IMG/VR virus record: IMGVR_UViG_3300033475_000008
Coordinates: 1 to 64,000 of that record
DNA from: a virus
Reading direction: 5' to 3' (one strand)
DNA length: 64,000 nucleotides
Of this stretch, positions 26,629-63,785 are shown piece after piece. Made by a program: the position numbers and the translations under genes. The notes under the pieces are model-generated. The model was not told the origin of the DNA. It made no database searches and saw only the letters and a program-made list of their open reading frames with translations. Each line of letters begins with the position of its first letter. Position 1 is the first letter of the stretch.

Positions 26629-26638
26629 CGCACCACTT

Positions 26639-26895: not shown

Positions 26896-26900
26896 CGCAG

Positions 26901-26972: not shown

Positions 26973-26973
26973 C

Positions 26974-27219: not shown

Positions 27220-27258
27220 CGGGTGCCAGGTGTTCCCCTAGTGGCCCTGGCACCGCTT

Positions 27259-27343: not shown

Positions 27344-27344
27344 C

Positions 27345-27417
27345 GCACTTGTAGCTCAGTTGGTAGAGCACTCGCCTCGTAAGTGAGTGGCCGCAGGTTC
27401 GATCCCTGTCAGGTGCT
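27345..27417 (+). tRNA. tRNA-Thr(CGT)
   Basis: Loop CT-CGT-AA. Confidence 0.9.
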
Positions 27418-27428
27418 CTCGTAGTAAC

Positions 27429-27502
27429 GCTGGTATAGCTCAGTTTGGCAGAGCACCCGCCTTGTAAGCGGAAGCGCGTCGGTTCGAAGCCGGCTACCAG
27501 CT
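27429..27502 (+). tRNA. tRNA-Thr(TGT)
   Basis: Loop CT-TGT-AA. Confidence 0.9.
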
Positions 27503-27611
27503 CGGACCACGCCTTCGCGAGAAGACCTAGGCGCGTGGTGACAGGGTTCATGGTGAGAGATCGGTGTCACGGACCATGAAAGCTACCAGGGTGGGCAGGG
27601 TAGTGCAACAC

Positions 27612-27684
27612 CGGGATGTGGCCTAGTTGGTAAGGCACGTGACTGGGGGTCACGAGAGCGCTGGTTCGAGTCCAGTCATCCCGA
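27612..27684 (+). tRNA. tRNA-Pro(GGG)
   Basis: Loop CT-GGG-GG. Confidence 0.9.
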
Positions 27685-27782
27685 CGGAAGTGCCACCCCT
27701 CGAGATTCTGACGCTGGGGGCGCTGAGTTAAGACGCGTCAGGTCTTGGCTGGTTTGCCGGTACCAACCACCACCGGTTCTAG

Positions 27783-27853
27783 GCTCTTGTAGCTCAATGG
27801 GAGAGCGCCTCGTTCACACCGAGGATACGGAGGTTCGATTCCTCTCAAGAGTA
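27783..27853 (+). tRNA. tRNA-Val(CAC)
   Basis: Loop TT-CAC-AC. Confidence 0.9.
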
Positions 27854-27854
27854 C

Positions 27855-27926
27855 GGTGACCGTGGTGTAGCGGTAACACGCTTGACTGTGGCTCAAGCGT
27901 CACGGGTTCGATCCCCGTCGGTCACA
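27855..27926 (+). tRNA. tRNA-His(GTG)
   Basis: Loop CT-GTG-GC; encoded G-1; A73 rather than the usual bacterial C73. Confidence 0.88.
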
Positions 27927-28072
27927 CGCGTAGGGAGTCGCTGGTCCCCATGCACTAGCCGTTCTACTTCGAGTCGCGCACCGGCCAGCTACCGGGAAGA
28001 GTCAAAAGTGATGATCCACCGTCCGCTGGTGGAAGTAGAGCCAAGATAGAAGATCATCACAACCAGCACCAC

Positions 28073-28259
28073 GTGTCTGTAGCTCAGGATAGGACAGAGC
28101 GGCCCGAACAACGGAGGGCGGCAGGCAAGAGGTTTGCGGATGCACCGGGTCCGGGCCTGACGGTCACAAGCCGAAGGGTTGGGGTACCTTATCCCCCGGC
28201 AGGGAAGCGCGTTTGACCAAACTTGCCCATCAGCGTGGGTTCGAATCCCACCAGACACG
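28073..28259 (+). ncRNA. tRNA-like RNA with ~135-nt structured insert
   Basis: Perfect acceptor GTGTCTG/CAGACAC, Arg-like D arm and T arm GTGGG-TTCGAAT-CCCAC flank a long insert. Confidence 0.75.
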
Positions 28260-28269
28260 CGTAGTACGA

Positions 28270-28329
28270 GGGCCTAGTTACCCAAGGTGAGGGTGCGCGC
28301 GCAACCGGGTTCGACTCCCGCTAGGTCCA
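28270..28329 (+). ncRNA. mini tRNA-like RNA with G3:U70
   Basis: GGGCCTAG/CTAGGTCC-A; CGGG-TTCGACT-CCCG; no D or anticodon arm. Confidence 0.6.
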
Positions 28330-28330
28330 C

Positions 28331-28403
28331 GGGTCTGTAGCTCAGAGGACAGAGCCGCCGGCTTCTACCCGGCTGGTCGTGGGTTCGACTCCCACCGGGC
28401 CCA
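28331..28403 (+). tRNA. tRNA-Arg(TCT)
   Basis: Loop CT-TCT-AC; A20. Confidence 0.9.
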
Positions 28404-28419
28404 CTGGTTGAGATTGGTT

Positions 28420-28449
28420 GTTTACATCTAGTCGAGATCGTGGTATAGT
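28420..28449 (+). promoter_or_regulatory. GTTTACA-type promoter
   Basis: TTTACA-17 nt-TATAGT followed by leader AGCAGGACAGCAGGAA. Confidence 0.75.
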
Positions 28450-28499
28450 GGTTCTAGCAGGACAGCAGGAAGCAAAACTGAAGAGTGACGAGTAACGAT

Positions 28500-28575
28500 G
28501 AGTCTGTAGCACAGCGGATAGTGCAGCTGCTTCCGAAGCAGCAGGTCGGAGGTTCGAATCCTCTCAGGCTCACCA
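28500..28575 (+). tRNA. tRNA-Arg(CCG)
   Basis: Loop TT-CCG-AA; encoded CCA. Confidence 0.92.
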
Positions 28576-28578
28576 GCG

Positions 28579-28742
28579 ATGCTGGCACCAGGGCATAAGC
28601 GTGACGGTCAACCACGGCTGAGAGTCGGACTGATGAGCAACGGTCCACCTGGTGGAGGTGCGGGCACTAACGCGTGGTGGCGAGTGTACCAACAGATCCT
28701 CACCCTTCTTGCTCTGAGACTTACCACCTCAGAGCAAGAAGG
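28579..28742 (+). ncRNA. unknown structured ncRNA, copy A
   Basis: Paralogous to 28826..28986 with compensatory stem changes. Confidence 0.75.
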
Positions 28743-28746
28743 TCAA

Positions 28747-28819
28747 GCCTCTGTAGCACAGCGGATAGTGCGCCTGATTACGGATCAGGAGGCCGGGGGT
28801 TCGAATCCCTCCAGGGGTA
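28747..28819 (+). tRNA. tRNA-Arg(ACG)
   Basis: Loop TT-ACG-GA. Confidence 0.92.
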
Positions 28820-28825
28820 CAAGTG

Positions 28826-49532: not shown

Positions 49533-51410
49533 TCAGCTGAACGGCGTGGTGTCGGAGACCTGAAGGCCCTGGAGGATGCCCGAGTATTGTGGGGCGTGAG
49601 CGCACAGAGCGCCGTACAGGAAGATCGAGTAGCGGAAGGTCGCGTCGATGACCGGCCACGCGATGGACACGTAGTCCTGCACGCAGGTCATCTCCCAGGC
49701 GTTGGCCACGTTGGACCAAGTCTGTGGGAGCTGGTAGGTCATCGCCATGGCGGTGCCCTGGGTGAGCCAGGGGTGGACCGTCAGGTTCAGGATCGACTTG
49801 GTGATCGGGTTCTGGAACTGGGAGACCGCGGCACCGACCCGGACACCGGCCACGTCGGGCTGGTCCAGGAAGAGTCGGTAGTTGGTCGCCGAGCCCTGAG
49901 AGATCACGTCGTTGCTGAGCCGCATGATGTCGCCACCGTTGCCGATGAGCTCAGCGGGGTCAGCCTTGAACGCGCCGGTGTTGGTACCGTTGGTCTCCCA
50001 CAGGCCATCCAGCATCTGGTACACGGCGTTGTAGGAGAGGTGGGTACCGACGGACTGGTTGACGTAGCCGCCCTGCCAGCCGCTCGGGTAGACACCAGCG
50101 CTGGCGGAGGCACCGGTGAGTGTCGGGATGACACCCTCCATGCGAGTGCCCTTGCCGGTTCCCGTGTCAGTGGTCGGCGGGTGAGCACCGGCACCGGCTG
50201 CGGGTCCCTGGATGGTGATGTACTTGCCACCAACCGGGGTGCTGGACTGGGTGCCCACGGAGGTGACACCGGCCTGAGTGGTGGCGCCAACCTGCAACCA
50301 GAGCTGCGAGTTGGTCGGGGTGGCAGAAGCCGTGGCCACGTAGATGTTGTAGGTCTGAGCACCGGCGACCGGGGCGATGGCCACGTCGACGACGTTGGTG
50401 GTACCCACCGTGGTGATGTCCGTGGACACCGCGCTGGCGACAGTCTCACCGTAGTAGTTGACGGCCGTGACCGCGACCACGAAGTGAGCGGGGGAGCCAC
50501 CGATCGGGGTCTCGTTGCTACCCGCGGTACGCAGGGTGGTGGTGACCGCACCTGGCGTGGCCAGGGGAGCGCTGGTGCCAGCGAGCATCATGTACTCCTC
50601 GCCCAGCATCATCTCCTGGAGGAGGATGAGGTTGGCGAGGGAGCTGATGTCCTCGAAGCCCTGACCCGCGAACTGAGCGAGGAAGGACAACTGCTCAGTG
50701 AGGCCGAAGAACCGGTATGGCACGTTGAGTGCCTGCTCGGTCTGGTTGCCAGACTGTGGCAGGTTGAGTGGCCAGCTGCTGAAGCTGGTGGAACCGGTGA
50801 GCTCCGCGGTGGAGATGTCCAGGACACCCTGGCCACCGGTACCGGAGCCGCTGATGCCGGTGAGCACCTTCTCCTGCATCGAGGTACCCTGGCCGGCTGG
50901 GCGAGGGAGCTTGTTGCGGAGGACAGTGTAGACCGGGTAGATCAGACGAGACGGGGCCCGGAGGTCAAAGGGGACCAGGCCGTAGATGCTGCCGATACCG
51001 AGGTTGCCCGCGGTGAAGGACTTCTGAACCGCCTCGGGACCACCGGGGAGGCTGCTCATCATCTCGGCCATCTGCTCCGCGATGGAGGGAGCGGTGAAAG
51101 CCGACTTCATGAGACCGAAGTTGTCCATGAAGCCCTTGTTGAGGCCGGCGACGACCTTGGACTTGTGGAACACGCTTCGACTGGTGGCCACGCGCAGGTC
51201 CATGGTGGCCTGGTGCGACCGGAGAGCGATCTCACCCTCGTCTTGGAGGGGCTGGTTACCGGTGACGAAACCGGCTCCCTTGACGAGTTCACCCATGCGC
51301 TTCTGGATCATCTCGCCAGTGTGGCTGTACTTGGGTGCCTCCTCGGTGGCTCCGGCGATCACCGAACCCTGAGAGGTAGGCATCTCCATGGTGGACAGGA
51401 TGTCTGCCAC
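49533..51410 (-). CDS. major capsid protein with an inserted FN3/Ig-like domain
   Basis: Follows the protease; PFDL..P...YP, LRN.LPR..G.G, EE.M.L.G; insert VTAVN.YGET...AQTYNIYV. Confidence 0.8.
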   Translation of the reverse strand: MADILSTMEMPTSQGSVIAGATEEAPKYSHTGEMIQKRMGELVKGAGFVTGNQPLQDEGEIALRSHQATMDLRVATSRSVFHKSKVVAGLNKGFMDNFGLMKSAFTAPSIAEQMAEMMSSLPGGPEAVQKSFTAGNLGIGSIYGLVPFDLRAPSRLIYPVYTVLRNKLPRPAGQGTSMQEKVLTGISGSGTGGQGVLDISTAELTGSTSFSSWPLNLPQSGNQTEQALNVPYRFFGLTEQLSFLAQFAGQGFEDISSLANLILLQEMMLGEEYMMLAGTSAPLATPGAVTTTLRTAGSNETPIGGSPAHFVVAVTAVNYYGETVASAVSTDITTVGTTNVVDVAIAPVAGAQTYNIYVATASATPTNSQLWLQVGATTQAGVTSVGTQSSTPVGGKYITIQGPAAGAGAHPPTTDTGTGKGTRMEGVIPTLTGASASAGVYPSGWQGGYVNQSVGTHLSYNAVYQMLDGLWETNGTNTGAFKADPAELIGNGGDIMRLSNDVISQGSATNYRLFLDQPDVAGVRVGAAVSQFQNPITKSILNLTVHPWLTQGTAMAMTYQLPQTWSNVANAWEMTCVQDYVSIAWPVIDATFRYSIFLYGALCAHAPQYSGILQGLQVSDTTPFS

Positions 51411-51471
51411 GGTGTGTCCTTTCAACGGGAAGCTAGTTGCCCTGTCGCCGGGCCGGCGGTCGAAGTGGTGA

Positions 51472-54393
51472 TTAGTCGATACCGCGCATCTGCAAGATGC
51501 CCTTCAAGGCTGCTTCCCGCTGCCGTGGGTCGTCCGAGTTGAGGTACCGCTCCTGCAGCACCTGCAACTTCCCCAGCTGTGACCGGTCTTGGACCGTGGC
51601 CAGGGTAGTCGGGGACGTCTCGTCCCCGAGGCTCTTGGTGGAACGTGGCTGAGCGAGGCCCCGCCACGGAGCGACGCGAGGGTCGGGCTCGTCAGCGAGC
51701 TGCTCGATCTCCTTACGCGCCTTCTTGAGCAACTTCCGCTGCTCTGCCAGGTCATCCTGGGCCCTGGTCAACTCAGCGACCAGGGGTGCCGTAGCCTCAG
51801 CCACCGCGCTCTTGACCAGGTCGGGGACCAGTGACTTGAGAAGGACCTGCATGTCAGGTGAGGCACCCGCGGCCTTCTGCACGTTCCCAGACTCACCGTC
51901 CACGGTGAGTTGCCGGGGAGTGTCGTGACTGGTGGCCTCCACCTGCTCAGTGGGAACGTGTTCCATGGCTTCCTCTGAGGTGAGGCTCATGGGGCAGAGT
52001 CCACTGTGTGACTTGGCCAGGTGATCGTGAAGGAGAAGCATCGCGGACCGGGTGGTCTCTCGGTGTTGCGTGACTCGCATGGTCCGAGTCTCGGCGTCAG
52101 CGCCCTTGTTGGCTGGGCTGTCTGCTGCCGCACCACCGTGGAGGAACCCACGCTGGAACTGGCTCGCCGTGATCTGCCCACCGATGACGGGTGCCGTGTT
52201 GGGTCCCGCGTACTGGAAGGAGGGACGAGCGTTGCCGGACACGATGAGGGGGCGCCGGAACTGCTGTGCCGTCACGTGACCAGGGGTGAGAGCGGTTCCC
52301 GGTCCCGGGTTGGCGTCTGTGAAGGACTTGTGCAGCTCCTGGTGAAGCTCCAACAGGACGTCTGGGTCTGCGTTCTTGACCACGGTGGCCGCGTACCAGC
52401 GGTCCTGGGCTGCCAGGGCCTCTTCCATGGGAGCGCCGGCAGCAGTCTTCATGGCCTCACGCTGCCACAGGGTGGTGTCCAACCCGGTGAGGTCCCGGTA
52501 AGGGTGTGCCAGGGTCAGGGACTTGTGACTGTAGGCGGGGCAGAGAAGGTCATGAAGCGCGCCCAGTTCACCGCCGACACCCAGGGTCTCGTGCTTCATG
52601 GCAGTCTTCATGGCCACCTGGTCATCTGGCACGGTGTCCAGGTGAGCGTCTGCCTCAAAGGACTCGATGGCAGTACCGTCTGGCTCGCGGTGAGGGGCGA
52701 CGGGCTGCGCGGACATGCCGGTGACCCCGTCAGCGGGGGTGGGCTCACTGCGGTGAATGCTCTTGGTGACCTCAGCCTTGGCACCGCAGTTGGGGCAAAA
52801 CTTGGCCTTCTTGCCCATGCTGGCACTGCACTTGCTGCAGCTGGACTTGCCCTTCTTCACCTTGGGTGTCTCAACGGCCTTGTCTGCCTCGTCAGAGTCA
52901 TCACCGTCGTCATCAGCCTCGTCTGGACCACCGTCACTGCGGTTGTCCATCTCGTCTTCACCGTCATCGCCCTCGTCGTCAGGGGCCGGCTTCTTGGACT
53001 TGTCGACCGCGTCCTCGTCGTCGCCACCGAGCTTCTCACCGCACTTGCAGGTGTCAGCGTCGGCCTTGTTGAAGTGCTTACAGCTGGGGCACTGCTTGCC
53101 CCCTGCCTTCTCGACGGTCTCATCCTCAGTCACGGCATCTCCCTTGTCGATACCCAGCTCCTTCTTCCAGGCGTCCGGGAGCTGTGCCACGAACGCTGAG
53201 CCCTTGCGGCGGGCGATGCTGATGATGCGGTTCTTGACCGAGCCAGGGTTGTCAGCCTTGCCGACGAGTGACGCGGCGTCTTGCACGTCACCAGGGGTGA
53301 CGATGGGATAGGTGCGATTGGGTCCCGCGAAGTCCTCAGCAGGGAGCTTGTCCCGGTCCACGCCGCCACCGACGTTGGGATCAATCTTCTTCTCAAGGTC
53401 AATCGTGCCGGCCTTGTGCTTGTCATCCTGCAGTGCTTGAAGTGCTTGCAGGATCTCAAGGTTCTGGGGTGAAGCCGGCTTGGTCTTCATGTCTTCAAGG
53501 ATGGAGCTGATTGACTCACTGGTTGTCGGCTTCACACCAGGTGCCGCGGTGTGCGTCGCGTTATGGTGATTAGCCAGGGTGGCGAGAGCTGCCGCTGGCT
53601 TAGCCTTGAACCCGAGGTCAGTGCCGTCCTCATGGGTGATCTTACGACCCGCGTACTTGCCGGTACCGTTGGGTGCCGCGATGTGCCCGATCTTCTCACC
53701 GGTGGGCTTGTGGACTACGTCACCGTTGGGCTTGCGCTGCAGATCACCTACGTTGACGGGTCCAACCTTGATCCAACCATGAGAGTAGCCGTGTGGGCCG
53801 ACTTTCTCTACCACGTCTTCAGTCTGGTGCTTGTTGAGCACCCGCGCTAGATCAGTTGGGCTGGGGGCTGGCCGGCCGAAGAGCTTGCCCACCCATTCCG
53901 CGTCACCGGTCTTGGCAGCCTTGACGAGCTCGAATCGGCAGTTCTTGTTGGCCGGGCGGTCTACCAGGGAGATCTCACCCAGTTCACCACCGATGATGCG
54001 ACCGTTGACCGCGTGCTTGTCAGCGACGATGACCGGGTGCATGATCCCCACGGAGTAGGACCGAAGCACGCCCTTCTTCACGAGGTCCTTCGCGACGGGT
54101 TCCACAACCAGGGACTTGACCCACTGACCACCGTTGCCGTCGCTGTCGACCTCGATACCACGCCCCACGGGACGGTACTGGTCGTGCTGGACTCGAACGT
54201 TGCCCCCGGTGTCCAGCCAGTCCTTCACGGCCTTGGCGGCCCACTCAGGGTCTACGATCTGTCGGTCACTGTCAACGATCCCGTCGGTGGCCTTACCGTA
54301 GACGATGACGTCACCGTCTGCCGTGGTTTCCATCTTGGCGATGGGGAAGGAGACGTAGGTCACCTCACCGTCGGGGGTCAGCGTGGCTGCCAT
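51472..54393 (-). CDS. prohead protease/scaffold multidomain protein
   Basis: HK97-type protease (VYG.A, D.D.QIVD, QH...VG, G.L..YSVG, EISLVDRPAN), then KVGPHGYSHG repeat, DFAGPNRTYPI domain, zinc ribbons and coiled coil. Confidence 0.85.
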   Translation of the reverse strand: MAATLTPDGEVTYVSFPIAKMETTADGDVIVYGKATDGIVDSDRQIVDPEWAAKAVKDWLDTGGNVRVQHDQYRPVGRGIEVDSDGNGGQWVKSLVVEPVAKDLVKKGVLRSYSVGIMHPVIVADKHAVNGRIIGGELGEISLVDRPANKNCRFELVKAAKTGDAEWVGKLFGRPAPSPTDLARVLNKHQTEDVVEKVGPHGYSHGWIKVGPVNVGDLQRKPNGDVVHKPTGEKIGHIAAPNGTGKYAGRKITHEDGTDLGFKAKPAAALATLANHHNATHTAAPGVKPTTSESISSILEDMKTKPASPQNLEILQALQALQDDKHKAGTIDLEKKIDPNVGGGVDRDKLPAEDFAGPNRTYPIVTPGDVQDAASLVGKADNPGSVKNRIISIARRKGSAFVAQLPDAWKKELGIDKGDAVTEDETVEKAGGKQCPSCKHFNKADADTCKCGEKLGGDDEDAVDKSKKPAPDDEGDDGEDEMDNRSDGGPDEADDDGDDSDEADKAVETPKVKKGKSSCSKCSASMGKKAKFCPNCGAKAEVTKSIHRSEPTPADGVTGMSAQPVAPHREPDGTAIESFEADAHLDTVPDDQVAMKTAMKHETLGVGGELGALHDLLCPAYSHKSLTLAHPYRDLTGLDTTLWQREAMKTAAGAPMEEALAAQDRWYAATVVKNADPDVLLELHQELHKSFTDANPGPGTALTPGHVTAQQFRRPLIVSGNARPSFQYAGPNTAPVIGGQITASQFQRGFLHGGAAADSPANKGADAETRTMRVTQHRETTRSAMLLLHDHLAKSHSGLCPMSLTSEEAMEHVPTEQVEATSHDTPRQLTVDGESGNVQKAAGASPDMQVLLKSLVPDLVKSAVAEATAPLVAELTRAQDDLAEQRKLLKKARKEIEQLADEPDPRVAPWRGLAQPRSTKSLGDETSPTTLATVQDRSQLGKLQVLQERYLNSDDPRQREAALKGILQMRGID

Positions 54394-54417
54394 GCTCCTC
54401 CTTTGGCATATGAAAAG

Positions 54418-54446
54418 ACGAGCCGTGCCTCAGGCACGACTCGTCT
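54418..54446. terminator. hairpin upstream of the protease
   Basis: GACGAGCCGTGCC-TCA-GGCACGACTCGTC. Confidence 0.45.
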
Positions 54447-54461
54447 AGTGACCATAGTATA

Positions 54462-54665
54462 TCACGCAGTGTCACTGGAGCCACTGCCGGTTTGAGCATT
54501 GTAGCGACGCATGAAGTCATCGGCCTCGTCAGCAGGAAGAGTAGTGTGGTCACCCTCGTAGACCGCGCTGAGTCGGTCCTTGAAGGCACCCTCAGCTTCC
54601 TCTTGCTTGACGTCCTCGTCTGGCTCAAGGTCGTCGTGCTCGTCTGGGGCCTGCTCGTCGCTCAT
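54462..54665 (-). CDS. small acidic protein
   Basis: ATGA overlap with the ART gene. Confidence 0.55.
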   Translation of the reverse strand: MSDEQAPDEHDDLEPDEDVKQEEAEGAFKDRLSAVYEGDHTTLPADEADDFMRRYNAQTGSGSSDTA

Positions 54666-57600
54666 GCCTGTCCGATCTTGTTGTACATGGTGTGGTTGCC
54701 ATCAGACTTGCTGATACCGACGATGGTGATGTCAGCGCGGCGACGGCCATCTGACCCGACGACGTCACTGTTCACGTGGTACATGGTGCCTCGTTGCAAG
54801 AGGATCTCTGCCTCACTGCTGTAGTAGGAGACACCCTTCACGTCCATGCCCTTGGCACCCTTTGGAGCGTGGATGGTGAGGAGGAGTCCCTTGCTGCCCC
54901 AGCCACCGAAGTTCTGTCCCACGTGTTCCTTGGTACTGGTGGACATGAAGGAGTGTTGCACGCCGACCTTGCCGACCTGACTACCGACGGGACCGAGCAT
55001 GCCCTCACCGTCATTGATGCCACGGTGCAGGGTCATATCCTGAGTGAGCTCACTCTTGTCCAGGGCTGAGGTGAGGTTGTTGCCAGCCGTGTCACCGGTC
55101 TTCTGGTCGTGGTGAAGCTTGGCGAGCGCGACCTTCTTGTTGATGGTGCCGTACCAGCTACCGGTGTACTTCTTGACCGCGGCGAGTTCACCGGCACTCA
55201 GTGTCTCGTTGCCCAAGGTGGTGTGAACTGACTTGGGAACGTGAACCGCCGCCGGTGCCACCGGAGTGAGGTTGACTTGTTGAGCGAGTGACGGCTTGGG
55301 CTTAGGTGCGCTCTCATCCTTGGCCAACTTGACGGCTTGCTGGTGAGCGTAGGCCAGTGAACCCTTGGCCTCCCACGAGTTGCTAACAGTCCAGGTGGCA
55401 CCACTGTGAGCGTGTGTGACCGTGGCTGTGCCATCTGGGTTGGTCTTGATCGTGCCCAGGTGAGTGACCTGATCGGCTTGAGTGTCCCAGGGGTTGCTGT
55501 GATAGTCGACGTTGGCCACACCGGTAGTCGAGTCGACGGGACCCACCATGGTCTTGTAGTTGTAACCAGGAGTGCCTGGGTCCAACTTGGCCAGTGCGCT
55601 GTCTGGGTCCTTCTTCACCACCTGGTGGATAGCCGTGGTCTGGTTGTGATAGTTGGCCAACTTGGCGACGGCTTCCTTCTTGGTGCTGGAGTTGGGAAGC
55701 TTGGTGCCGTCTTCGTGTTGAACCACCCAGGCGTTGTGCCAGTTCTTGCTGACCGTGCCGATCTGCTGCTTGCTGACCTTGTCGATGGCGGCGTGGGTGC
55801 CGTCTTGCTTGACTGAGACGTCGGTGGGCTTGACCGCGGTGCCGGCCTTGAGCCAGGCAGGCGGCGGTTCTGGAGCCGGTGCTGAGGGTACCGTTGCCGC
55901 GGGTGACGTTGACGGTGGAAGCTTGTCGATCTCATCGTTGTGATAGTTGATGAGAGCCTTCTTAGCGTGATAGACGTCACTGTAGGCCGGCAACGTCTTG
56001 CCACTGGCGTGTGTCGGTACCGCGCCACCGCTCACCGGGAGGTTGATTTCTCCGATGACGACGTTGTTGTGCGTGACCTTGTCTGACACGGTATTGTAGT
56101 GCGCGTCATCGCTGTAACTGATGTGACCGGCGGCGGCCCACTCTGGTACTGGACTGACTGGTGTCTCAGCCGGTGCCGTCATTTCGGTGATGCCGGCGTA
56201 CTTCTTGTTGTGGTACGCGGCCACGGCTTGTGAGGGTGAGTTGCCTACGCCTACCGGGACAGCAGTACTATCAGCGTGAGTAGCCGTATAGCCACCAGAA
56301 TCGGGCTTGTAGTGACCCACCACGGTGCCTGTCGGCTTGTGGACAAGGTCACCGGCACCATCAGGGAAGACGTCCTTGGCGTTGATCGCGCCGAGCTTCT
56401 CGTAGTCCTTCTTCTCAGGTGTCGACGGTGGTGTCGGTGATGAGGAACTCCCACTCAGTGAGTTGTGATACTCCGAGAGAGTGAGCTTGGCGTGTTGCGC
56501 TGCGCCGCCAGGGAGCACGGCACCGCTCGACGTGAAGTGCTTCACGTCAAGAACAGTCCCGTCCACGTGCTTGACTTGCTTGAAACTCGGCTTACCAGAT
56601 GTGGGGATGGTCTCACCGATCTTCTTGCCGGTGGCGTCATCCACGAAGTCCATGCTACCGGGCTCGTTACCTGGTACCAGTGTCATGCCAGCCGGTGTGA
56701 CCTTAGCCGGGAGATCCAACTTGGGCTTCGGCTTGGGGAGTTCCACTGAGACTGCCGGTGCCTCTGGCTGAGCGACGTGTCCCTCCCCACCCTTCATCTT
56801 GGAGTTGTGGTGAAGAGCGATGCTGGCCAGGGCGTTGCCCTTGTAGACACCGGTGTGAGTGTGAGTGCCGTCAGCGTGGGTGGCCGTAAAGGTGCTGGTG
56901 CCCTTCTTCGGTGTGTCTGCTTGCTTGGCCAGGTGGCCGACCACGGTTCCCGTGGGCTTGTGGACCACGTCGCCGTTCTTCTTGACACTGAGGTCCTGCG
57001 TGTTGATCTCACCACCGGCCTTGGCCCAGGGTGCAGTGGGGTGAGTGGCCGGGGTGGGAGCAGCGACCGTGGCACTCTGAGCGGGAGTGATCGGCTTGGC
57101 CATCTCGCCGGGTGCGGTCTTCTTAGCCGGGACCTTGACCGGTGTTGACGAGTCATGCGTGGTACCACCCACGGGGCTCTGCATGCCGTGAAGCTGCTCG
57201 TGGGCCTTGAGTTGTTCGTGGATGCTGTCGTAACCTTGACCAGGGGTGGCGAAGTTCCGGGCCTGAGTGAGCTCGGTGTGAGCCTTCATCGCGTCACCAC
57301 TTGCCAGGGCGTTGGCCGCGGCATGGAGGTGGTTGGCGGCACTCGTGTCGCCCTGCTTGGTAGCGTGTTGAGCCAGGAGATGCAGGTTGTGATACTCGGC
57401 TACCGAGTCCACGGCCTCTTGGTGGGTCTGGTGCTTGGTCATGAGCTTCATCTTGCCAGAGCCGATGACCGCGCCGTTGTGTTGTCCACTGAACGTGCCG
57501 TCCGCGTTCTTGCGGATACCACCGATCTGCTGACCACCGACGTAGGTCTTGCCCTCCAGGTGCCCACCGTGGTAGATCTTGCCGTTCTTGGGGTCCCGCC

Positions 57601-58570
57601 AGGCCTTGGTGGTGCCGTGGCCACAGGGTGGCCGGACGCAGATGAACCCGTGGATGTATCCCTCTGGCCCGACCTTGAGGATCTGGACCGCGGGGACCTT
57701 CATCTTGCCAGTGTTGGTGGGCTTGCCCAGGGGGACGGTGGAGACGACCTCACCACCGACGTGGATGTTGAGGTGTGTGACCGGCACGTCCACCCAGGGC
57801 TGGGGCTCTGGTGCCTCACCACCGTACTTGAGAGTGACGTGTGGGGTGAAGTCCTGGTGCTCTGAGGCGTGGTACCTCTGCAGCTTCTGGCGCAGCACGT
57901 CCAGTGGCTCACCCTGGGTGAGCTCGTCAGTGGTGACGTGAGCGTAGTGGACGTCATCACCGCCACTGCTGGCTGAGGCCGGGAACCTGCCGAGGCCGCC
58001 GACCTGCATGGTGAAGGGCACAGTACCACGGGCTGCCTGCTGCACCGCCTGCTTGACCTCCTCGAGGAGGTCATCCGTGACGTTCTTACCGAGGTAGACT
58101 AGGGTGACATGGTGGTCGTCGACCCCGCCGTCCACGTCTTGGAGGGTGCCAGGTGTGAGGTCGATGCTGACCATGCCACTGCGCTTGGTGAGGCCAGGAA
58201 CGGCGGCCTTGCCTCGAAGCTCCTTGGCGTGAGTGACTGGCCAGATACCCAGGGCATCGTGGTGTCGCTCTGCGCAGTAGCCCTTCGGGTCCTCCATGAA
58301 CTTGCCGACGTGGCGGACGCAGCGGTCAAAGTCACCGGGCTCACCCCAGCGGACTTTCAGAGTGCCGCCCTTGCCGTGGGTCCAGTATCGGCGCAGGGTC
58401 TCCGCGTCACCGCCGTGCCCCTTGGCCTTGGTCACGTCCCCCTCTGGTGCCTGAGGGAGGCGTGACTTGCCCATGCCAGGCGACCAGGTGGCGCCGCGAG
58501 CCACGTCATAGAGGTCGTGGAGCCAGTCCCGGTTGACTGGGGACTCGTCCAGGTTGCCGAGGTCGATCAT
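54662..58570 (-). CDS. multidomain head-associated protein: 2H phosphoesterase, repeats and VIP2-like ADP-ribosyltransferase
   Basis: HHVTL and PHVTL (2H); about 7 repeats ending (Y/H)HN; YTG..Y..IN, LHRG, FMSTS, EAEILL. Confidence 0.85.
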   Translation of the reverse strand: MIDLGNLDESPVNRDWLHDLYDVARGATWSPGMGKSRLPQAPEGDVTKAKGHGGDAETLRRYWTHGKGGTLKVRWGEPGDFDRCVRHVGKFMEDPKGYCAERHHDALGIWPVTHAKELRGKAAVPGLTKRSGMVSIDLTPGTLQDVDGGVDDHHVTLVYLGKNVTDDLLEEVKQAVQQAARGTVPFTMQVGGLGRFPASASSGGDDVHYAHVTTDELTQGEPLDVLRQKLQRYHASEHQDFTPHVTLKYGGEAPEPQPWVDVPVTHLNIHVGGEVVSTVPLGKPTNTGKMKVPAVQILKVGPEGYIHGFICVRPPCGHGTTKAWRDPKNGKIYHGGHLEGKTYVGGQQIGGIRKNADGTFSGQHNGAVIGSGKMKLMTKHQTHQEAVDSVAEYHNLHLLAQHATKQGDTSAANHLHAAANALASGDAMKAHTELTQARNFATPGQGYDSIHEQLKAHEQLHGMQSPVGGTTHDSSTPVKVPAKKTAPGEMAKPITPAQSATVAAPTPATHPTAPWAKAGGEINTQDLSVKKNGDVVHKPTGTVVGHLAKQADTPKKGTSTFTATHADGTHTHTGVYKGNALASIALHHNSKMKGGEGHVAQPEAPAVSVELPKPKPKLDLPAKVTPAGMTLVPGNEPGSMDFVDDATGKKIGETIPTSGKPSFKQVKHVDGTVLDVKHFTSSGAVLPGGAAQHAKLTLSEYHNSLSGSSSSPTPPSTPEKKDYEKLGAINAKDVFPDGAGDLVHKPTGTVVGHYKPDSGGYTATHADSTAVPVGVGNSPSQAVAAYHNKKYAGITEMTAPAETPVSPVPEWAAAGHISYSDDAHYNTVSDKVTHNNVVIGEINLPVSGGAVPTHASGKTLPAYSDVYHAKKALINYHNDEIDKLPPSTSPAATVPSAPAPEPPPAWLKAGTAVKPTDVSVKQDGTHAAIDKVSKQQIGTVSKNWHNAWVVQHEDGTKLPNSSTKKEAVAKLANYHNQTTAIHQVVKKDPDSALAKLDPGTPGYNYKTMVGPVDSTTGVANVDYHSNPWDTQADQVTHLGTIKTNPDGTATVTHAHSGATWTVSNSWEAKGSLAYAHQQAVKLAKDESAPKPKPSLAQQVNLTPVAPAAVHVPKSVHTTLGNETLSAGELAAVKKYTGSWYGTINKKVALAKLHHDQKTGDTAGNNLTSALDKSELTQDMTLHRGINDGEGMLGPVGSQVGKVGVQHSFMSTSTKEHVGQNFGGWGSKGLLLTIHAPKGAKGMDVKGVSYYSSEAEILLQRGTMYHVNSDVVGSDGRRRADITIVGISKSDGNHTMYNKIGQA

Positions 58571-60798
58571 GCCTTCAGTCCAAACTGGATCGTCGTATTG
58601 TCACTGCTGGGTTGTGCCTTGATGGCGACGACCTCTCCTAGGGCGACGACGCTGTTTCGAAGCTCACCCTCACCTCGCCAGTGCATGAACACCTGGTCTG
58701 AGGGGTGGGTGGTATTCATCCACGCGACTGGCACGTCGTTCTTCGTGTACTTGACGCCGTAAGGAGCCCCTATGTTCATGTTGTCGACCTCATGCCCGAC
58801 TGACTTGTTCATGAGACTGCGGATCGACGCCTTGCCCCTGGGCTCTGACCAGGAGGAGATGGAATTGGTGGTGGCGGTCCATGGTTCCTTCTCCGCGCCA
58901 AACTTGAGAGGGTGCTCAGCGAGTTGAAGCTGCTTGGCCTGCTTGCCATACACGGCTCGGATCACCGGGAGATCACCAGAGATCTTGGCTTCCTTGAGGA
59001 CCTGCTGTGTGTAGTGTTGCTGTGCCTTCACGGTCCAGTAATCATGGAAGTCTTCTCGACGTTGTCGTGCCTCTGGTGACATGTCGTTGAACCGGAACCC
59101 AAGCAGGCCCATGGGACCGCTGAAGGACTGGAAGTCAGACTTCGCGTACTTGAACTCACTGATCTCAGTGAGCTTCGCACCGTCAAAGTCACCGGGTTGG
59201 ATCTTCGGTGGTTCCTTCATGTCGTGGACCTTGTTGAAGATCGGCACGATGTCGTCGTTGCCACTGGCACCCCAGACACTGACCAACCGGTCCACGCCAG
59301 CCCAGTCCTTGGCCTTCCAGTTGCCCTCGTTCTGCAGGTCCGTGTCACTGCTGATGAGGCCAGCCGCTGGCTCAGGCACACCGGCCTTGGTGAGCACTGA
59401 GTGCAGGTACCGGCTCTTGAGAGTGTCCAGTTCGCCAGCTTGCTTGTCATCAGCAAACTTGAGCTTCTTGTCACCGATGAGGGCCTTGATCCTGGCGTGG
59501 TCCTCTGGTGAGAGGTGATCCTCGAACCCGCCACTGAGTTCCGCGGTCTCACCGGAGACGACAGCGTGGGTGCGCTCCAGTGGGGCTGGCTCAGTGAGAG
59601 TACCGGTCTCTCGCTCTGGTCGCTTGAGCTCCTCTACCTTGGGAGTCTCTGGCTCGTGAGTCGCCTCAACTGGCTTCTCGACCTCAGCGGGCTTGACCTC
59701 TGGTTCTACCGACTTGATCTCACCGTGGGCCTTCACCGACATGTTGTGATGCGTGGCCAGGGTGCCCAGGGCCTCACGCTTGTAGACACCGTGGTAGGTC
59801 TGGGTGCCGTCGGCGTGGTGGACCAGGAACGTGGTAGTACCCGGCTTGGGACTGTCTGGGGTCCGCTGGATGTGCCCGACGACGGTGCCAGACTCCTTGT
59901 GGACGACTGAGCCGTCCTTCTTCAAGCTGAGGTGCGAGGCGTCGACCTCTGCCCCTACCTTGATCCAGCCGTGGATGTAGCCCTTGGGACCGACCTTGCC
60001 GAGGAACTTGTTCTGCGACGAGGCACCCTGGTGCTGTTGGTAGACGTGTGTCTCGTCCCAGGGGCCACCGTCGTTGTCTACGAACCCGATGTAGGCTCGG
60101 ACTGGCTTACCCAGGGTGTGGTAGGCCAGGGTACGGTGGTGCCCGTCGATGACCTTGACCTTGTTCTCACCGGGCTCCTGCACCGCGACCACGGGGTGGG
60201 TGTGGCCCTTACCCTTCTTGATCTGCTTGGCGAAGTGCTTGACCCGGTCTGGCTCGTGACTGGCAGCCCAGGAGCCCACGTCGTCGTAGTCTACCCGGTC
60301 CTGGGGTACCTCTACTGGCCCGATCCACCGAGCCTTCTTCATCCAGCCCAGGGCTTTCTCTGGGTAGTTCTGCCGCATCTGGTTCATGACGTGCTCAGCC
60401 TCAACCGGGTTGGCGTCATGAGGGTCGGCGGCGGCCTTAGCCAGGGGACGAGAACGAGGAGCGCTGAAGTCACCGGGGTCGTGTTGGATGTCGTTCTCGT
60501 CATGTGGCAACAGCACTGGTCCACCCAGACCAGAGGGGTCACCGGGAAGGAACGCTGAGTCTGGTCCCGTGGGTGGCTCAAAGACCTGCCCGCTGTTGTC
60601 GACGTGTCGACGTCGAGCTCGGACGGCTTCCCGAACCGTGTCTGCCCGGGACATGCCGGCCTTGAGACAGTCCACCACGGTGCCGACATCGCGGTGAGTG
60701 ATGTGTCGGGGCTGCCAAGTACCCGGTGACACGCCCTTGAGGATGACTCGAGTGAGAGCGTCCAACTCTGACTGAACCTGTTGCTCCGTGATGGTCAC
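58567..60798 (-). CDS. multidomain head-associated protein: ParB/Srx-like domain, repeat and divergent ART-like C-terminus
   Basis: HPVVAV...VIDGHHRT.A; KVGPKGYIHG; VIRAV, ISSWS, GEVVA. Confidence 0.7.
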   Translation of the reverse strand: MTITEQQVQSELDALTRVILKGVSPGTWQPRHITHRDVGTVVDCLKAGMSRADTVREAVRARRRHVDNSGQVFEPPTGPDSAFLPGDPSGLGGPVLLPHDENDIQHDPGDFSAPRSRPLAKAAADPHDANPVEAEHVMNQMRQNYPEKALGWMKKARWIGPVEVPQDRVDYDDVGSWAASHEPDRVKHFAKQIKKGKGHTHPVVAVQEPGENKVKVIDGHHRTLAYHTLGKPVRAYIGFVDNDGGPWDETHVYQQHQGASSQNKFLGKVGPKGYIHGWIKVGAEVDASHLSLKKDGSVVHKESGTVVGHIQRTPDSPKPGTTTFLVHHADGTQTYHGVYKREALGTLATHHNMSVKAHGEIKSVEPEVKPAEVEKPVEATHEPETPKVEELKRPERETGTLTEPAPLERTHAVVSGETAELSGGFEDHLSPEDHARIKALIGDKKLKFADDKQAGELDTLKSRYLHSVLTKAGVPEPAAGLISSDTDLQNEGNWKAKDWAGVDRLVSVWGASGNDDIVPIFNKVHDMKEPPKIQPGDFDGAKLTEISEFKYAKSDFQSFSGPMGLLGFRFNDMSPEARQRREDFHDYWTVKAQQHYTQQVLKEAKISGDLPVIRAVYGKQAKQLQLAEHPLKFGAEKEPWTATTNSISSWSEPRGKASIRSLMNKSVGHEVDNMNIGAPYGVKYTKNDVPVAWMNTTHPSDQVFMHWRGEGELRNSVVALGEVVAIKAQPSSDNTTIQFGLKA

Positions 60799-63785
60799 CG
60801 GGCCACCTCCATGACCGCGTCCAGGACCAACATGGTGAACCCACGTTTGGTGAGATCCGTGTGAGTGAACTTGCCGGTGAACATGGACTCTACCGCGTTC
60901 ACCATGGCCTGTAGCGGGAGGTCCGCGACGTTGGGTTGTGGTCCATACTGGGGCAGCAATGACGCGATAAGGCTGGCTGGGATGTCTTGGGGTTCCACCG
61001 AGACACCACCGTAGCCACCCGTGGACTGGATGCGCTGGTTGGCCAGAGACGCGAGCCGTCGGCGAAGCTCCTCGCGGGCTGCGGCTCGGGACTGCACGCT
61101 GGTCCCGTCGCTGCCTGTCTGGTTGGGAAGTGACGCGATAAACTGGTCCTTCTCATCTGCCATCTGTTGACGACGAGCGGTGATGTCTTGCCGCTGCTGA
61201 GCGTAGTAGCCAGGGGCCTCAGGACGCTGCGTGTTGCCCAAGCTGTCCAAAACCTGGTCACCCTTCACCAGGTCCACATGACACCCACAGTTGGGTCCAC
61301 CGAGGCACACGGGACCGCCGAACCCGCCGTCACCTGGCCAACCAGGGATGGACTTGAACGTGAACTCTTGGCCGTCCCGAGCCAAGCACAGGGGGCAGTG
61401 CTCAGTCTCACCAAGGCGCCACACGAGCTTGAGACCCGGGTCACTGGACTTGCCGGTGTTGCCATACCCGTCGTGCCAGGCACCGTTGAGACCCTCACCG
61501 TAGAGCTTGGTCCGAGGTGGCAGCCAGGTGTGAGGGTCAGTACCATCTTGGTCCGCGTCCTTCACCGCCGTGGCTAGACCCGTGAGGTAGGGTCGCTGGG
61601 TCTCAGCCCGCTGAGCCGCGAGTCCCTGCAGGACCTCTTCACCCAGGGGTGGGAGGTGCAGTTGGTGAGCCGCGGTCTGCGCCCCGTGGTGCAGGGCCTT
61701 GTAGTAGGCACTCTCCATGGCAGCCACACCTTGCGTGACTGCCTCAAGGAAGTTGATGCCACCACCGTAGTAGCTGAGCATCGTGCTGGTGAGTTGCTTG
61801 GCGACCAGGGCCGCGGTGCTGGCCAAGAGCACGTCCTGGGCCACGTTCGGTGGTGACGTGGTCTGCTGGGGCGGTGGCGTGGTCGCGGTGGGGGTGGCGG
61901 CCTTTTGACTGCTGGCCGTGGTGTCGTGGCCACCCTTGCTGTCCGCGTCTCGCTCTGCGGCGTCGTGAGTGGCCTCTGCCGCGGTGTGTCCCGGGGACTC
62001 CTTCTCGTCGCTTGGCTTCGCGGCCGGCTTGGAAGTGGGCTTGGAAACTGGTGTCTTGGCCTCTGTGCCAGCGTCCGGGTCCTGGCCATCTTGGTCGTCT
62101 TGGCCGGTGTCTGGGCCGTTCTGCTGTTGAGCGTTGGCAGCTGCCTGTTGCTGAGCGAGTTGAGCGCCCTGGGTGAGGGTCATGAACCCGGTGGGAGTGA
62201 ACACGCCAGGGTCACTGGTCTCTGGGAGGCCGAAGGGCTGCAGGCCGAGCTTGTCACGTCCCTCGTCGATGGTGCGCAGGGAGTGACCGACCTGGTTGAC
62301 CAGGAGGTTGGTGAGGGTCTCCTCGTCCTCCTCTTCCTGCATGCCCTCGAAGATGAAGCGCATGTCAGGTTGACCACACACCACGTGGAGGATGTGTTCC
62401 GCGATGCTGGTCAGGAAGAGCAAGGTGGGAAGCAAGGTGGACTGGTCCTGCTGCTGTCCAGACATCTTGGCCATCTGGTTGGCCGCACCGGGTGACTGCG
62501 TGGTGCTGACCTTGGGACTGATGCCGATCTGCATGGGTTGTACCCCGAAGGCCATGCAGGTCTGGGCCATGATGATCTCGTCGAACTGATCAGCGAGCTC
62601 AGTAGGCCGCTGAGGGTCGACCTTGCTGCCAGACGGCAGAACAATGATCTTGTGGTGGTAGGCAGGGTCACCAGCGATGGCGTTGAGAGCGTCCTGCAGT
62701 TCCCGGATCTGGTTCGGGGAGAGGTCGTTGCCCGGGGAGATGTAGACCGCGGGAACCGTGCCCTCTTGGAAGTAGTCTCGCTGGTAGCCCTGCTTGGCCA
62801 GACCCGTGGTGATGGGGATGAGACCGCGCTCGATGGGTGGGAACCCGTAGGGTGTCCACCGTCGTGGCACCATCCGCAGGTACATGAGCTGACTGCCCGT
62901 GAACTGCTGGACCTGTGAGCCCTTGAGGTCGTTGTCCTCGAGGTCCCAGTCCATGATCGTGGACATGAGATCGACTCGTGGGACCCCGTAGAGATACTGC
63001 TGGTAGCCTACGGCTGGTGGTCGAGGAGTGCCACCACGGAGGTCGTAGAGTGGTCGGATGGTGGGACCGTTGACCAGAGCCAGGGAGTCCAGGTTGGAGC
63101 CGAGAAGTCCCTTCTTGCCGCCTCGTCCTCGCTTGGGCCGCATGACGATGGACAGGGCGTCGTAGACCAGGATCTCTTCCATCACGTTGGAGATCCAGGA
63201 CTGCCAACTGAAGTAGTCGTGGTCTGGGTGCTTGAAGAACTTGATGGCCTCAGCGCGTCGCTCACCGAAGTCCTTCATGGCAGCTTGGTCGTTGCGCATG
63301 GCCTTGGCGGCGTCTCGAGTGGGAGTGATGTCCCACTCGAGTGACACGATCTGGGACTTGATGAACTCGATGCAGGCCCGGGCCACCGAGTAGAGGTCTG
63401 CCAGGGTCTGGAGCTGCTGGAAACTGGCGAGCTTGAGACCCTCGTCACCGGGGGTGCCAGTGGGGAGGTTCCAACCAACGCGGTACTGCTCGAGGCGGGC
63501 CTCGACTTGTCCGTACTCGTTGGACTCGTCAACGGGGATGGAGAGGATGGGACTGAAGGGTCCAAACGCACCTTCGGTGAAGTCCTGAGGTGGTCGTGGG
63601 AGACCCAGGGTGCCGTATGTGCTGCCCCAGCCGCCACTGGGGTTGACCAGCCGCCCGCTGTGTTCAGCAGTCCCGGCCAACCCGGCACCGAAGAGACCAC
63701 TGGGAGTGGCTGGTGGCAGGGTCTGTCGGTTGACGCCACTCTGGATGGCACTGTTGGCCGCGATGACTGAGCCACGTCGTGCCAC
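60795..63785 (-). CDS. portal protein fused to a MuF-like domain
   Basis: FF..PD, YG.PP.E, YF.EG.VP, AFGV.P..IG, TIDE.R..LGL.P; C-term W.L...HCPLC...CLGGPNCGC. Confidence 0.85.
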   Translation of the reverse strand: MARRGSVIAANSAIQSGVNRQTLPPATPSGLFGAGLAGTAEHSGRLVNPSGGWGSTYGTLGLPRPPQDFTEGAFGPFSPILSIPVDESNEYGQVEARLEQYRVGWNLPTGTPGDEGLKLASFQQLQTLADLYSVARACIEFIKSQIVSLEWDITPTRDAAKAMRNDQAAMKDFGERRAEAIKFFKHPDHDYFSWQSWISNVMEEILVYDALSIVMRPKRGRGGKKGLLGSNLDSLALVNGPTIRPLYDLRGGTPRPPAVGYQQYLYGVPRVDLMSTIMDWDLEDNDLKGSQVQQFTGSQLMYLRMVPRRWTPYGFPPIERGLIPITTGLAKQGYQRDYFQEGTVPAVYISPGNDLSPNQIRELQDALNAIAGDPAYHHKIIVLPSGSKVDPQRPTELADQFDEIIMAQTCMAFGVQPMQIGISPKVSTTQSPGAANQMAKMSGQQQDQSTLLPTLLFLTSIAEHILHVVCGQPDMRFIFEGMQEEEDEETLTNLLVNQVGHSLRTIDEGRDKLGLQPFGLPETSDPGVFTPTGFMTLTQGAQLAQQQAAANAQQQNGPDTGQDDQDGQDPDAGTEAKTPVSKPTSKPAAKPSDEKESPGHTAAEATHDAAERDADSKGGHDTTASSQKAATPTATTPPPQQTTSPPNVAQDVLLASTAALVAKQLTSTMLSYYGGGINFLEAVTQGVAAMESAYYKALHHGAQTAAHQLHLPPLGEEVLQGLAAQRAETQRPYLTGLATAVKDADQDGTDPHTWLPPRTKLYGEGLNGAWHDGYGNTGKSSDPGLKLVWRLGETEHCPLCLARDGQEFTFKSIPGWPGDGGFGGPVCLGGPNCGCHVDLVKGDQVLDSLGNTQRPEAPGYYAQQRQDITARRQQMADEKDQFIASLPNQTGSDGTSVQSRAAAREELRRRLASLANQRIQSTGGYGGVSVEPQDIPASLIASLLPQYGPQPNVADLPLQAMVNAVESMFTGKFTHTDLTKRGFTMLVLDAVMEVAR

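Follow-up and report, generated by a model that had tools for sequence, protein, structure and literature searches.

The stretch of DNA analysed here, called the window, is the first 64 kb of the IMG/VR virus record IMGVR_UViG_3300033475_000008 (91,440 bp, ~89% complete, GC content ~0.61). It holds a head gene module in which the genes for a portal, a 743-residue protein, a 1302-residue protein, a 67-residue protein, a prohead protease-scaffold fusion, and the major capsid protein all lie on the minus strand. The protease-scaffold fusion and the 743- and 1302-residue proteins share a short peptide, VGPxGYxHG, referred to below as the tag, and a ~60-residue repeat referred to as the HN module. 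A preliminary description of this DNA placed the tag at three sites, and a pattern search confirms them: over all six reading frames of the window, GPxGYxHG has three matches and no more, one per protein. A 15-residue position-specific scoring matrix (PSSM) of the tag scores nothing else in the genome. Packaged polyvalent proteins are a known theme, to which this junction tag is a new addition. The tags and the genes that carry them are located as follows, a slash marking the predicted cut.

51472-54393, minus strand: prohead protease-scaffold fusion, 973 residues (Pfam Peptidase_S78, phrog_21715)
53752-53820, minus strand: tag 1 (K-type) in the protease fusion, DVVEK/VGPHGYSHGWIKVGP, K197/V198 (pattern match at 53776-53799)
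54662-58570, minus strand: 1302-residue polyvalent protein (Pfam and PHROGs)
57620-57691, minus strand: tag 2 (C-type) in the 1302-residue protein, VQILK/VGPEGYIHGFICVRPPCG, K299/V300 (pattern match at 57647-57670)
58567-60798, minus strand: 743-residue protein (phrog_1033 ParB-like, 4.8e-6)
59953-60012, minus strand: tag 3 (K-type) in the 743-residue protein, NKFLGK/VGPKGYIHGWIKVG, K268/V269 (pattern match at 59968-59991)

Each of these proteins is built of several parts. The fusion starts with an assemblin-like protease domain (residues ~20-158), followed by the tag, an HN module, an RxYPI-like segment, two zinc ribbons in an acidic linker, and a C-terminal scaffold-like part. Residues 349-392 of the fusion (window 53218-53349), FAGPNRTYPIVTPGDV…ARRKG, weakly match the crAss001 'cargo protein 1 gp45' (7qog_M, E 0.005), and a similar GGSFPIPDVAYLKKAI stretch occurs in the open reading frame (ORF) L052:9350-10159 of another contig, G007. 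The 1302-residue protein consists of a phrog_6439 domain (48-117), a 2H phosphoesterase (153-253), the tag, seven HN modules, and an ADP-ribosyltransferase (1121-1278); its Pfam matches are ADPrib_exo_Tox (4.9e-19), 2_5_RNA_ligase2 (5.6e-11), and LigT_PEase (4.6e-10). The 743-residue protein consists of an N-terminal region, a ParB/Srx-like domain (~119-260), the tag, one HN module, and a C-terminal domain (370-743). Its ParB region is homologous to copies that are fused to the portal or embedded in polyproteins in relatives. The C-terminal domain (window 58567-59688) has no Pfam match even at E<=1 and is homologous to the ORF at 1494-3815 of locus L007 (E 2.4e-30).

The three tags of the window are identical pairwise at 33-40 of 66 nucleotides, and among their 11-13 identical residues 4-6 have identical codons; in other words, about half of the identical residues share a codon. 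Because synonymous sites differ among them, the tags are conserved as protein and are not a recent DNA repeat. An AlphaFold2 (AF2) model of the 743-residue protein, based on a 23-sequence alignment, gives tag 3 a predicted local distance difference test score (pLDDT) of <50 and no secondary structure. Because AF2 folds the adjoining HN module yet leaves the tag disordered, the tag is, as modelled, an unstructured linear motif.

A profile of the tag across phages had been proposed as a check in the preliminary description, and this search proved productive. The tag-plus-module profile finds 188 representative proteins (carriers), which are protein clusters from metagenomes, among 1.84 billion, and it also finds 30 IMG/VR loci. 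The extended consensus of the tag is [AP]-[DE]-[LIV]-[VTE]-K-V-G-[PAK]-[EKH]-G-Y-[IV]-H-G-[WYF]-[IV]-[KCY]-V-[GR]-P-P-C-G. Lys occupies the P1 position in 118 of 132 tags and Val the P1' position in 125 of 132, and the 17 conserved residues sit downstream of the conserved Lys. Tags lie between domains and are concentrated in the N-terminal fifth of carriers. The first tag comes within 45 residues in 48 of 173 carriers, and in several independent proteins the leader is just 7-10 residues long (M-x-V-L-A-P-E-L-V-K/VG). Many other tags are internal, with several per protein.

The tags fall into three main types. The C-type (…ICVRPPCG) has 112 tags and is followed by an HN module in 82 of them, the K-type (…IKVG) has 73 tags and is followed by one in 12, and the F-type (…WIFVG) has 46 tags and is followed by none. 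F-type tags instead precede a V-x-H-P-x-H-G-x-G-T-V…V-x-F-D-x-G segment, which is weakly similar to CarD/TRCF-RID (E 0.058; 2e-6 in one carrier). Carriers of the F-type include L008:9436-10380, L017:8397-10613, and L024:11097-13592; in L017 and L024 an RMF-like domain lies upstream of the tag (PF04957, 27.7 bits against a cut-off of 27.9). In the C-type pattern GY-x-H-G-x-x-C-V-R-P-P-C-G, the single His and both Cys are invariant over more than 100 copies; the Cys residues are absent from the K- and F-types. The C-type tag (e.g., window 57620-57670) may form a zinc knuckle that joins the tag to the next module.

In ~8% of tags the Lys is missing and the sequence is [AV]-I-[DE]-L/VGP…, consistently within a protein. 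The idea that Lys-less tags are limited to N-termini, where a cut would be dispensable, was rejected (Fisher p = 0.25); they mark a separate lineage instead, which is described further below.

The domains attached to the tag are diverse. Pfam searches of 150 carrier representatives find ADP-ribosyltransferase domains (40), MuF (18), NUDIX (15), portal (9), Arr (6), and PI3/4-kinase-like domains (6), and further alpha/beta hydrolases, Zeta toxin, 2H, GNAT, and Hint domains. This set matches the domain repertoire of phage polyvalent proteins (PMC5512222). Most tags are encoded just downstream of the portal gene and on a single strand. The 132-kb contig IMGVR_UViG_3300027795_000039 (G001; loci L012-L016 and L019) has 21 tag or module matches over 55 kb of one strand, and the 95.7-kb contig IMGVR_UViG_3300047576_000046 (G002; loci L009 and L010) has 20 over 32 kb, also on one strand. 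Tag-bearing polyprotein genes cover roughly a third or more of each. Two tag-bearing genes of G001 lie beyond the capsid gene. One NCBI record of 104,150 bp contains five carriers.

The tag is absent from Pfam and PHROGs, and neither it nor the HN module falls within any Pfam LPD or PolyVal family. A near-identity DNA search and a tblastn search of tag plus module gave no match among 50,697 INPHARED phages, and a scan of GTDB genomes for the tag gave 13 pattern matches, none of which was confirmed. Tag motif strings found only chance matches in the literature. Against PDB sequences, the tag-plus-module profile found only chance titin matches (E ~0.5). The whole 743-residue protein as a query for IMG/VR loci gave no match.

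The HN module is found in the window in the numbers given by the preliminary description. A jackhmmer search seeded with the copy of the 743-residue protein finds seven in the 1302-residue protein, one in the 743-residue protein, and one in the protease fusion, with domain E-values of 6e-8 to 1e-38, and no further module elsewhere in the 91,440-bp genome.

53530-53748, minus strand: HN module of the protease fusion, residues 216-288 (jackhmmer domain E 5e-27)
55322-57541, minus strand: array of seven HN modules in the 1302-residue protein, residues 344-1083 (domain E 6e-8 to 1e-28)
59704-59943, minus strand: HN module of the 743-residue protein, residues 286-365 (AF2 pLDDT 83-93)

A further claim, that each tag is followed by a module, fails among relatives. 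Only 98 of 269 tags have a module next to them. The tag and the HN module are independent, separable units because 77 of 175 modules occur without a tag and many tags occur without a module. The AF2 model of the module of the 743-residue protein has five strands and a C-terminal helix. In a fold search Foldseek returned nothing at E<=1e-3, the best VIA Z being 5.2. Matches to folds of the double-stranded RNA-binding or AP2 type were of a generic sheet-plus-helix kind and were not accepted as an assignment, and DNA binding is not indicated, the modules being just mildly basic (isoelectric point 6.3-9.8). Judged by the model, the HN module is a separate small alpha/beta domain outside the tag, and it may serve as a repeatable spacer or handle.

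How might a tag be connected with the prohead protease? Pfam Peptidase_S78 (PF04586) matches the fusion with 20.4 bits, just under its cut-off of 21 (E 6e-4). The AF2 model of residues 20-155 has a pLDDT of 85-96, and Foldseek matches it with a probability of 1.00 to the proteases of Kaposi's sarcoma-associated herpesvirus, human cytomegalovirus, and herpes simplex virus and to T4 gp21 (5jbl), at E 2e-4 to 7e-4. The match to 5jbl has a template-modelling score of 0.61 on the target and a root-mean-square deviation of 3.6 over 150 columns. Thus, the modelled protease domain has an assemblin-like fold. Conservation alone points to S114, which is invariant, and H70, which is kept in at least 90% of 15 homologues, as candidate catalytic residues. 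The fusion and the capsid protein also contain Lys sites that resemble the upstream half of the tag and have no tag attached.

53911-53931, minus strand: tagless site ELVK158/AAK at the end of the protease domain (K158 invariant in 15 of 15 homologues)
51808-51825, minus strand: tagless site PDLVK861/S in the scaffold tail (upstream PSSM 13.7, next best 10.4)
49533-51425, minus strand: major capsid protein, 630 residues (phrog_13692, 1.6e-58 over residues 120-620)
51267-51296, minus strand: capsid N-terminal site MGELVK49/GAGF (conserved in relatives)
51015-51035, minus strand: capsid site EAVQK135/SFTAGNLG (conserved only in the closest relatives L006 and L034)

The ELVK158/AAK site aligns in all relatives, and the model pLDDT falls there. 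By analogy with the herpesvirus R-site, it is a candidate release site. PDLVK861/S is the top non-tag match of the genome to the upstream consensus (PSSM, 40,242 positions), and the scaffold-tail site reads P[DE]L[VIT]K[ASG] in relatives. The capsid protein has a propeptide-like N-terminal region of ~135 residues. The MGELVK49 site in it takes the form [MLT]PxLVKG[AxY]G[FY] in eight relatives and is present in L037, L042, and L036 (MPNAVKGFGF in the last). It resembles the tag (PELVK/VGPxGY) solely in the upstream half and in a G-x-G-aromatic pattern. EAVQK135/SFTAGNLG is a candidate maturation cut immediately before the conserved shell domain.

L036 is a prophage of Actinoallomurus vinaceus JCM 17939 (NZ_BAABHK010000004.1:591097-612863). 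It encodes the same portal-ParB and protease-scaffold fusions and the same capsid protein (54% identity), but neither a tag nor an HN module, which makes it a natural tagless control in a cultured strain, the only one found in a strain. At the position of ELVK158/AAK it reads IELVKAAKD. The tagless sites at K158, K861, and K49 appear to predate the tag because all three are also present in this prophage.

Domain boundaries in the window proteins were earlier said to fall repeatedly at hydrophobic-x-K-[ASGV]. Enrichment of this pattern is seen in the protease-scaffold fusion (20 against 8.0±2.6 in shuffled sequences; none of 1000 shuffles reaches 20) and in the capsid protein (7 against 2.0±1.3, five of them within the first 136 residues), and it does not extend to the portal (3 against 3.5) or to the two cargo proteins. 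The upstream PSSM likewise has four matches in the fusion where 0.49 are expected, and none of 500 shuffles reaches four. Such an excess, of both patterns in the fusion and of hydrophobic-x-K-[ASGV] in the capsid propeptide, is as expected for parts that are degraded.

These findings suggest a model in which the tag is a junction signal whose upstream half is a prohead-protease site, and in which packaged polyproteins are split into pieces, each starting with VGP. We put the chance that this model is right at about one half. The upstream half, [AP]-[DE]-[LIV]-[VT]-K, would be the site that the phage's own prohead protease, an enzyme of the assemblin/HK97 type, recognises and cuts. Cleavage at the same site would also trim the N-terminal propeptide of the capsid protein, release the protease domain, and take the scaffold tail apart. 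The downstream half, VGPxGYxHGW[IV]xV with an optional RPPCG, would be an unstructured motif retained at the new N-terminus of each piece. The 743- and 1302-residue proteins would be built into the procapsid alongside the portal and the protease-scaffold core and cut after Lys at K/VGP and at a few tagless x-x-K/[ASG] sites. A ParB-like piece, a 2H phosphoesterase piece, and a piece with the module array and ADP-ribosyltransferase would then exit with the DNA. The analysis shows the anatomy and distribution of the motif, its disorder, the protease fold, and the conserved tagless sites; from these we infer cleavage, packaging, and ejection. Cutting at K/VGP by an HK97/assemblin-type protease is a reasonable reading because Lys precedes the tags and [DE]-L-V-K recurs at conserved tagless positions. 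The position of the carriers in the head module also fits the earlier proposal of packaged and cut polyproteins, although the part of that proposal concerning a loading system does not stand, as detailed below.

Several observations weigh against the junction model. The residues upstream of the window tags (VQILK, KFLGK, DVVEK) match the consensus poorly except for the Lys. Matches to the upstream PSSM are in excess in the protease-scaffold fusion alone. The two cargo proteins show no enrichment of this PSSM or of hydrophobic-x-K-[ASGV] (12 against 11.1 in the 1302-residue protein and 9 against 5.6 in the 743-residue protein), and amphipathic helices of the scaffold could by themselves lift the counts of hydrophobic-x-K-A. 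The AF2 model of protease residues 1-300 does not dock the tag in the active site, but it comes from a shallow alignment, has low confidence after residue 156, and is uninformative on this point. In the lineage with Lys-less tags, no S78, ClpP-type, or PF05065 protein was detected, even in a 109,876-bp record rated complete. Furthermore, the 17 strongly conserved residues far exceed the needs of a cleavage site, a surplus in the VGP half that the junction model does not account for.

One alternative is that the tag is purely for capsid loading. In this model, VGPxGYxHGW, with or without the HN module, docks cargo on the capsid interior, the scaffold, or the tagged protease, and cleavage is secondary or absent. 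The T4 capsid-targeting sequence is a precedent (PMC9026906). Every carrier lies in a head module, the capsid N-terminus has the related PELVKGxG[FY] stretch, and stand-alone carriers without a portal, MuF, or protease domain begin with a tag after 7-40 residues and would need some address. Relatives with the same head speak to this model. K-, C-, and F-type contigs that reach far enough all share the portal, protease-scaffold fusion, and capsid families of the window, and cassettes homologous to its cargo are fused to portal, MuF, and protease domains. Many tags are internal to portal- or MuF-fused proteins that are already anchored, and the tagless prophage builds the same head; both points count against pure loading. 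Further evidence against it comes from the closest relative, L006. Its cargo proteins have tags, tag 2 being nearly identical in it, yet its protease lacks the tag and module; the window protease has a 147-residue insertion at this place. Because L006 lacks this tag-plus-module insertion, the tag on the window protease is, judged by the alignment, a cassette acquired recently rather than a permanent component of loading machinery. This argues against the earlier proposal that the tag and module of the protease act as a loading system. With the findings on the second lineage given below, a pure loading tag appears improbable.

The comparison with L006 also bears on the possibility that the tag is a recombination handle, i.e., a conserved junction for swapping cassettes, like the VENN or pre-toxin motifs of polymorphic toxins, with little biochemical role of its own. 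Homologues of the 743-residue N-terminus, ParB, 2H, module array, and ADP-ribosyltransferase are encoded in a single 1635-residue ORF in L006, so that two genes of the window correspond to one ORF, and this ORF has a 155-residue tag-plus-module insertion at another place. The module array of L006 has six modules compared to seven in the window, which has a 94-residue insertion there. Thus, cassettes have been gained, lost, and re-ordered at tags between the window and L006, as a handle would predict. However, the window tags differ at about half of synonymous positions, leaving no DNA-level handle here, and the 17 residues are under peptide-level selection across the 188 clusters. A mere handle is therefore very unlikely.

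The lineage with Lys-less tags has a different head module. Its gene order is terminase, a portal of a different family (phrog_113), and then the tag-bearing genes. Seven IMG/VR contigs have the Lys-less form, with GC contents of 0.57-0.70, six of them 0.68-0.70; loci of this lineage include L045, L050, and L052 (IMGVR_UViG_3300036800_000175:1-20000, the contig G007 mentioned above). Within a genome, all tags have [AV]I[DE]L as the upstream half while the downstream half is the same, and the polyproteins also hold tagless ALEL/S and ALEL/A sites. One protein of this lineage begins directly with MIDLVGPKGY. Profile searches found no homologue of the window capsid protein or protease in this lineage, and a search with these two profiles, PF04586, PF00574, PF05065, and PHROGs yielded the terminase and portal only. 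In other words, the upstream half varies with the head lineage and the VGP half does not, as far as the sequences tell. Such a combination of a variable and a constant half looks as expected of a protease-specific site joined to a lineage-independent element. The invariance of the VGP half across lineages weighs against docking on this capsid protein or protease; a peptide that docks on either would not be expected to have an identical tag half in a lineage without a detectable homologue of them.

If the VGP half is independent of the head lineage, at which step could it act? One possibility, put forward tentatively, is that VGPxGYxHGW is a portable signal that acts after the cut. As the new N-terminus of dozens of different effector domains, it would lead them to a common step, either exit through the tail with the DNA or docking on one conserved actinobacterial target. 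The lineage-specific residues before VGP would then merely adapt the tag to each phage's protease, which is an equally tentative proposal. A related and somewhat less probable explanation is a function after ejection, in which the exposed VGPxGYxHGW N-terminus binds a conserved actinobacterial host component or a metal and localises or protects the effectors. The tag half is kept in head lineages that are unrelated and have just a high-GC, Actinomycetota-like host range in common, it is disordered in AF2, its His and two Cys are invariant in the C-type, and it is joined to many host-directed enzymes (ADP-ribosyltransferase, Arr, NUDIX, kinase-like, RMF-like, and CarD-RID-like). However, the tag is also present in the protease-scaffold fusion and in small proteins encoded between the genes for the protease and the capsid protein, none of them an obvious effector, and its position is locked to the upstream site. 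The GTDB genome scan found no cellular protein with the tag, and no search points to a host partner. The roles considered here (junction, loading, post-ejection, and recombination) are not mutually exclusive.

The remaining genes of the head module are the portal and a small acidic protein.

60795-63785, minus strand: portal, 996 residues (Pfam Phage_portal PF04860 1.2e-15; phrog_2662 9e-47)
54462-54665, minus strand: 67-residue acidic protein, isoelectric point 4.05, between the 1302-residue cargo gene and the protease gene

The C-terminal ~370 residues of the portal (residues ~630-996; window 60795-61900) form an extension that is a separate ORF in L024. It terminates in a Cys-rich MuF-like motif, then the tagless candidate site VDLVK841/GDQ (61260-61274), and the portal C-terminus bears tags and cargo domains in relatives. 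The 67-residue protein has a homologue in L006 and may act, for instance, in immunity, as a chaperone, or as an accessory to the scaffold. Gene starts in the metagenomic loci are approximate. The host of the window virus is probably an actinomycete because relatives of the capsid protein come from the Actinoallomurus vinaceus prophage and from metagenome-assembled genomes of Streptosporangiaceae and other Actinomycetes. The window also has 40 tRNA genes at 14398-28820 on the plus strand, 39 of them in one block (23805-28820); the set spans nearly all amino acids and is large for a 91-kb phage.

To our knowledge, the choice, loading, and release of proteins injected with phage DNA are understood in detail just for T4 and a few giant phages. 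The tag provides a concrete, very recognisable marker of such cargo for a large group of uncultured phages of actinobacteria, in some of which tag-bearing genes span 30-55 kb, and it lists dozens of attached enzymes, including ADP-ribosyltransferases and NUDIX, Arr-like, kinase-like, RMF-like, and ParB-like proteins. One half that tracks the lineage and one that is constant provide a testable model of how a single protease can process cargo of unlimited variety. A tag that proved transplantable could serve to bring proteins of choice into phage heads; if the portable-signal reading is true, cargo delivery by phage heads would have a general tag that can be moved from protein to protein. New in the resources searched are the peptide itself, its position downstream of the cut, its number of copies per genome, its tie to the sites of the protease, and its sharing between unrelated head modules.

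In herpesviruses, the protease-scaffold polyprotein has an R site after the protease domain and an M site in the tail. The window fusion resembles herpesvirus assemblin and HK97 gp4 in its protease fold, in the fusion of the protease to a scaffold as in UL26, in having conserved candidate sites after the domain and in the tail, and in a predicted P1 Lys like that of HK97, whose capsid protein is cleaved at K103/S104 (PMC10275583). Unlike in these systems, the substrates would extend to large effector polyproteins, cleavage here being predicted.

Packaged and processed multi-enzyme proteins are established in concept by the phage polyvalent proteins (PMC5512222) and the MuF-linked polymorphic toxins (PMC5576092); processing was proposed there to occur mostly via embedded zincin peptidases, and no shared junction peptide was described. 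Like the polyvalent proteins (Iyer et al. 2017), the carriers combine unrelated enzymatic domains (ADP-ribosyltransferase, 2H, ParB-like, NUDIX, kinase-like) in one polypeptide and are predicted to be packaged, processed, and injected. Their activities are disparate, with 2H and ADP-ribosyltransferase in the 1302-residue protein and combinations of ADP-ribosyltransferase, NUDIX, MuF, Arr, kinase-like, hydrolase, and Zeta domains in relatives. The cargo genes lie among late virion genes, between the portal and the protease and capsid genes, with MuF and portal fusions in relatives. Unlike in polyvalent proteins, the junctions here carry one conserved, disordered motif of ~25 residues whose upstream half matches the sites of the head protease. 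As at VENN-type junctions, a conserved motif borders exchangeable cassettes, but the window tags have no nucleotide-level identity that could drive recombination.

Encapsulin cargo-loading peptides are likewise short disordered peptides common to the cargo of an HK97-fold shell. However, they are usually C-terminal, shell-binding, and uncut, whereas the tag is used in lineages whose capsid proteins are unrelated, an argument against direct binding to the shell. In the heads of SPN3US and phiKZ, one prohead protease processes many internal proteins at a simple motif and cleaves propeptides more than once (PMC10052503). These giant phages differ in their A-x-E motif, in long N-terminal propeptides with no shared downstream tag, and in phage family and capsid size.

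Perhaps the nearest counterpart is found in T4, where the capsid-targeting sequences of IPI-III and Alt are removed by the prohead protease gp21 (PMC9026906). In both cases, a short peptide is common to unrelated internal head proteins, including an ADP-ribosyltransferase, and stands beside a prohead-protease site, a predicted one in the case of the tag, and the leader of 7-10 residues before the predicted cut in relatives is comparable to the 10-residue T4 sequence. Unlike the N-terminal T4 sequence, with which they have no sequence similarity, the window tags start at residues 198, 269, and 300, and tags frequently lie in the interior of a protein and in several copies. Cleavage in T4 follows Glu (L/I-x-E), whereas the cut here would fall after Lys, or after Leu in the second lineage. 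Finally, the T4 sequence lies upstream of its cut and is discarded, whereas the conserved part of the tag lies downstream and would remain on the product.

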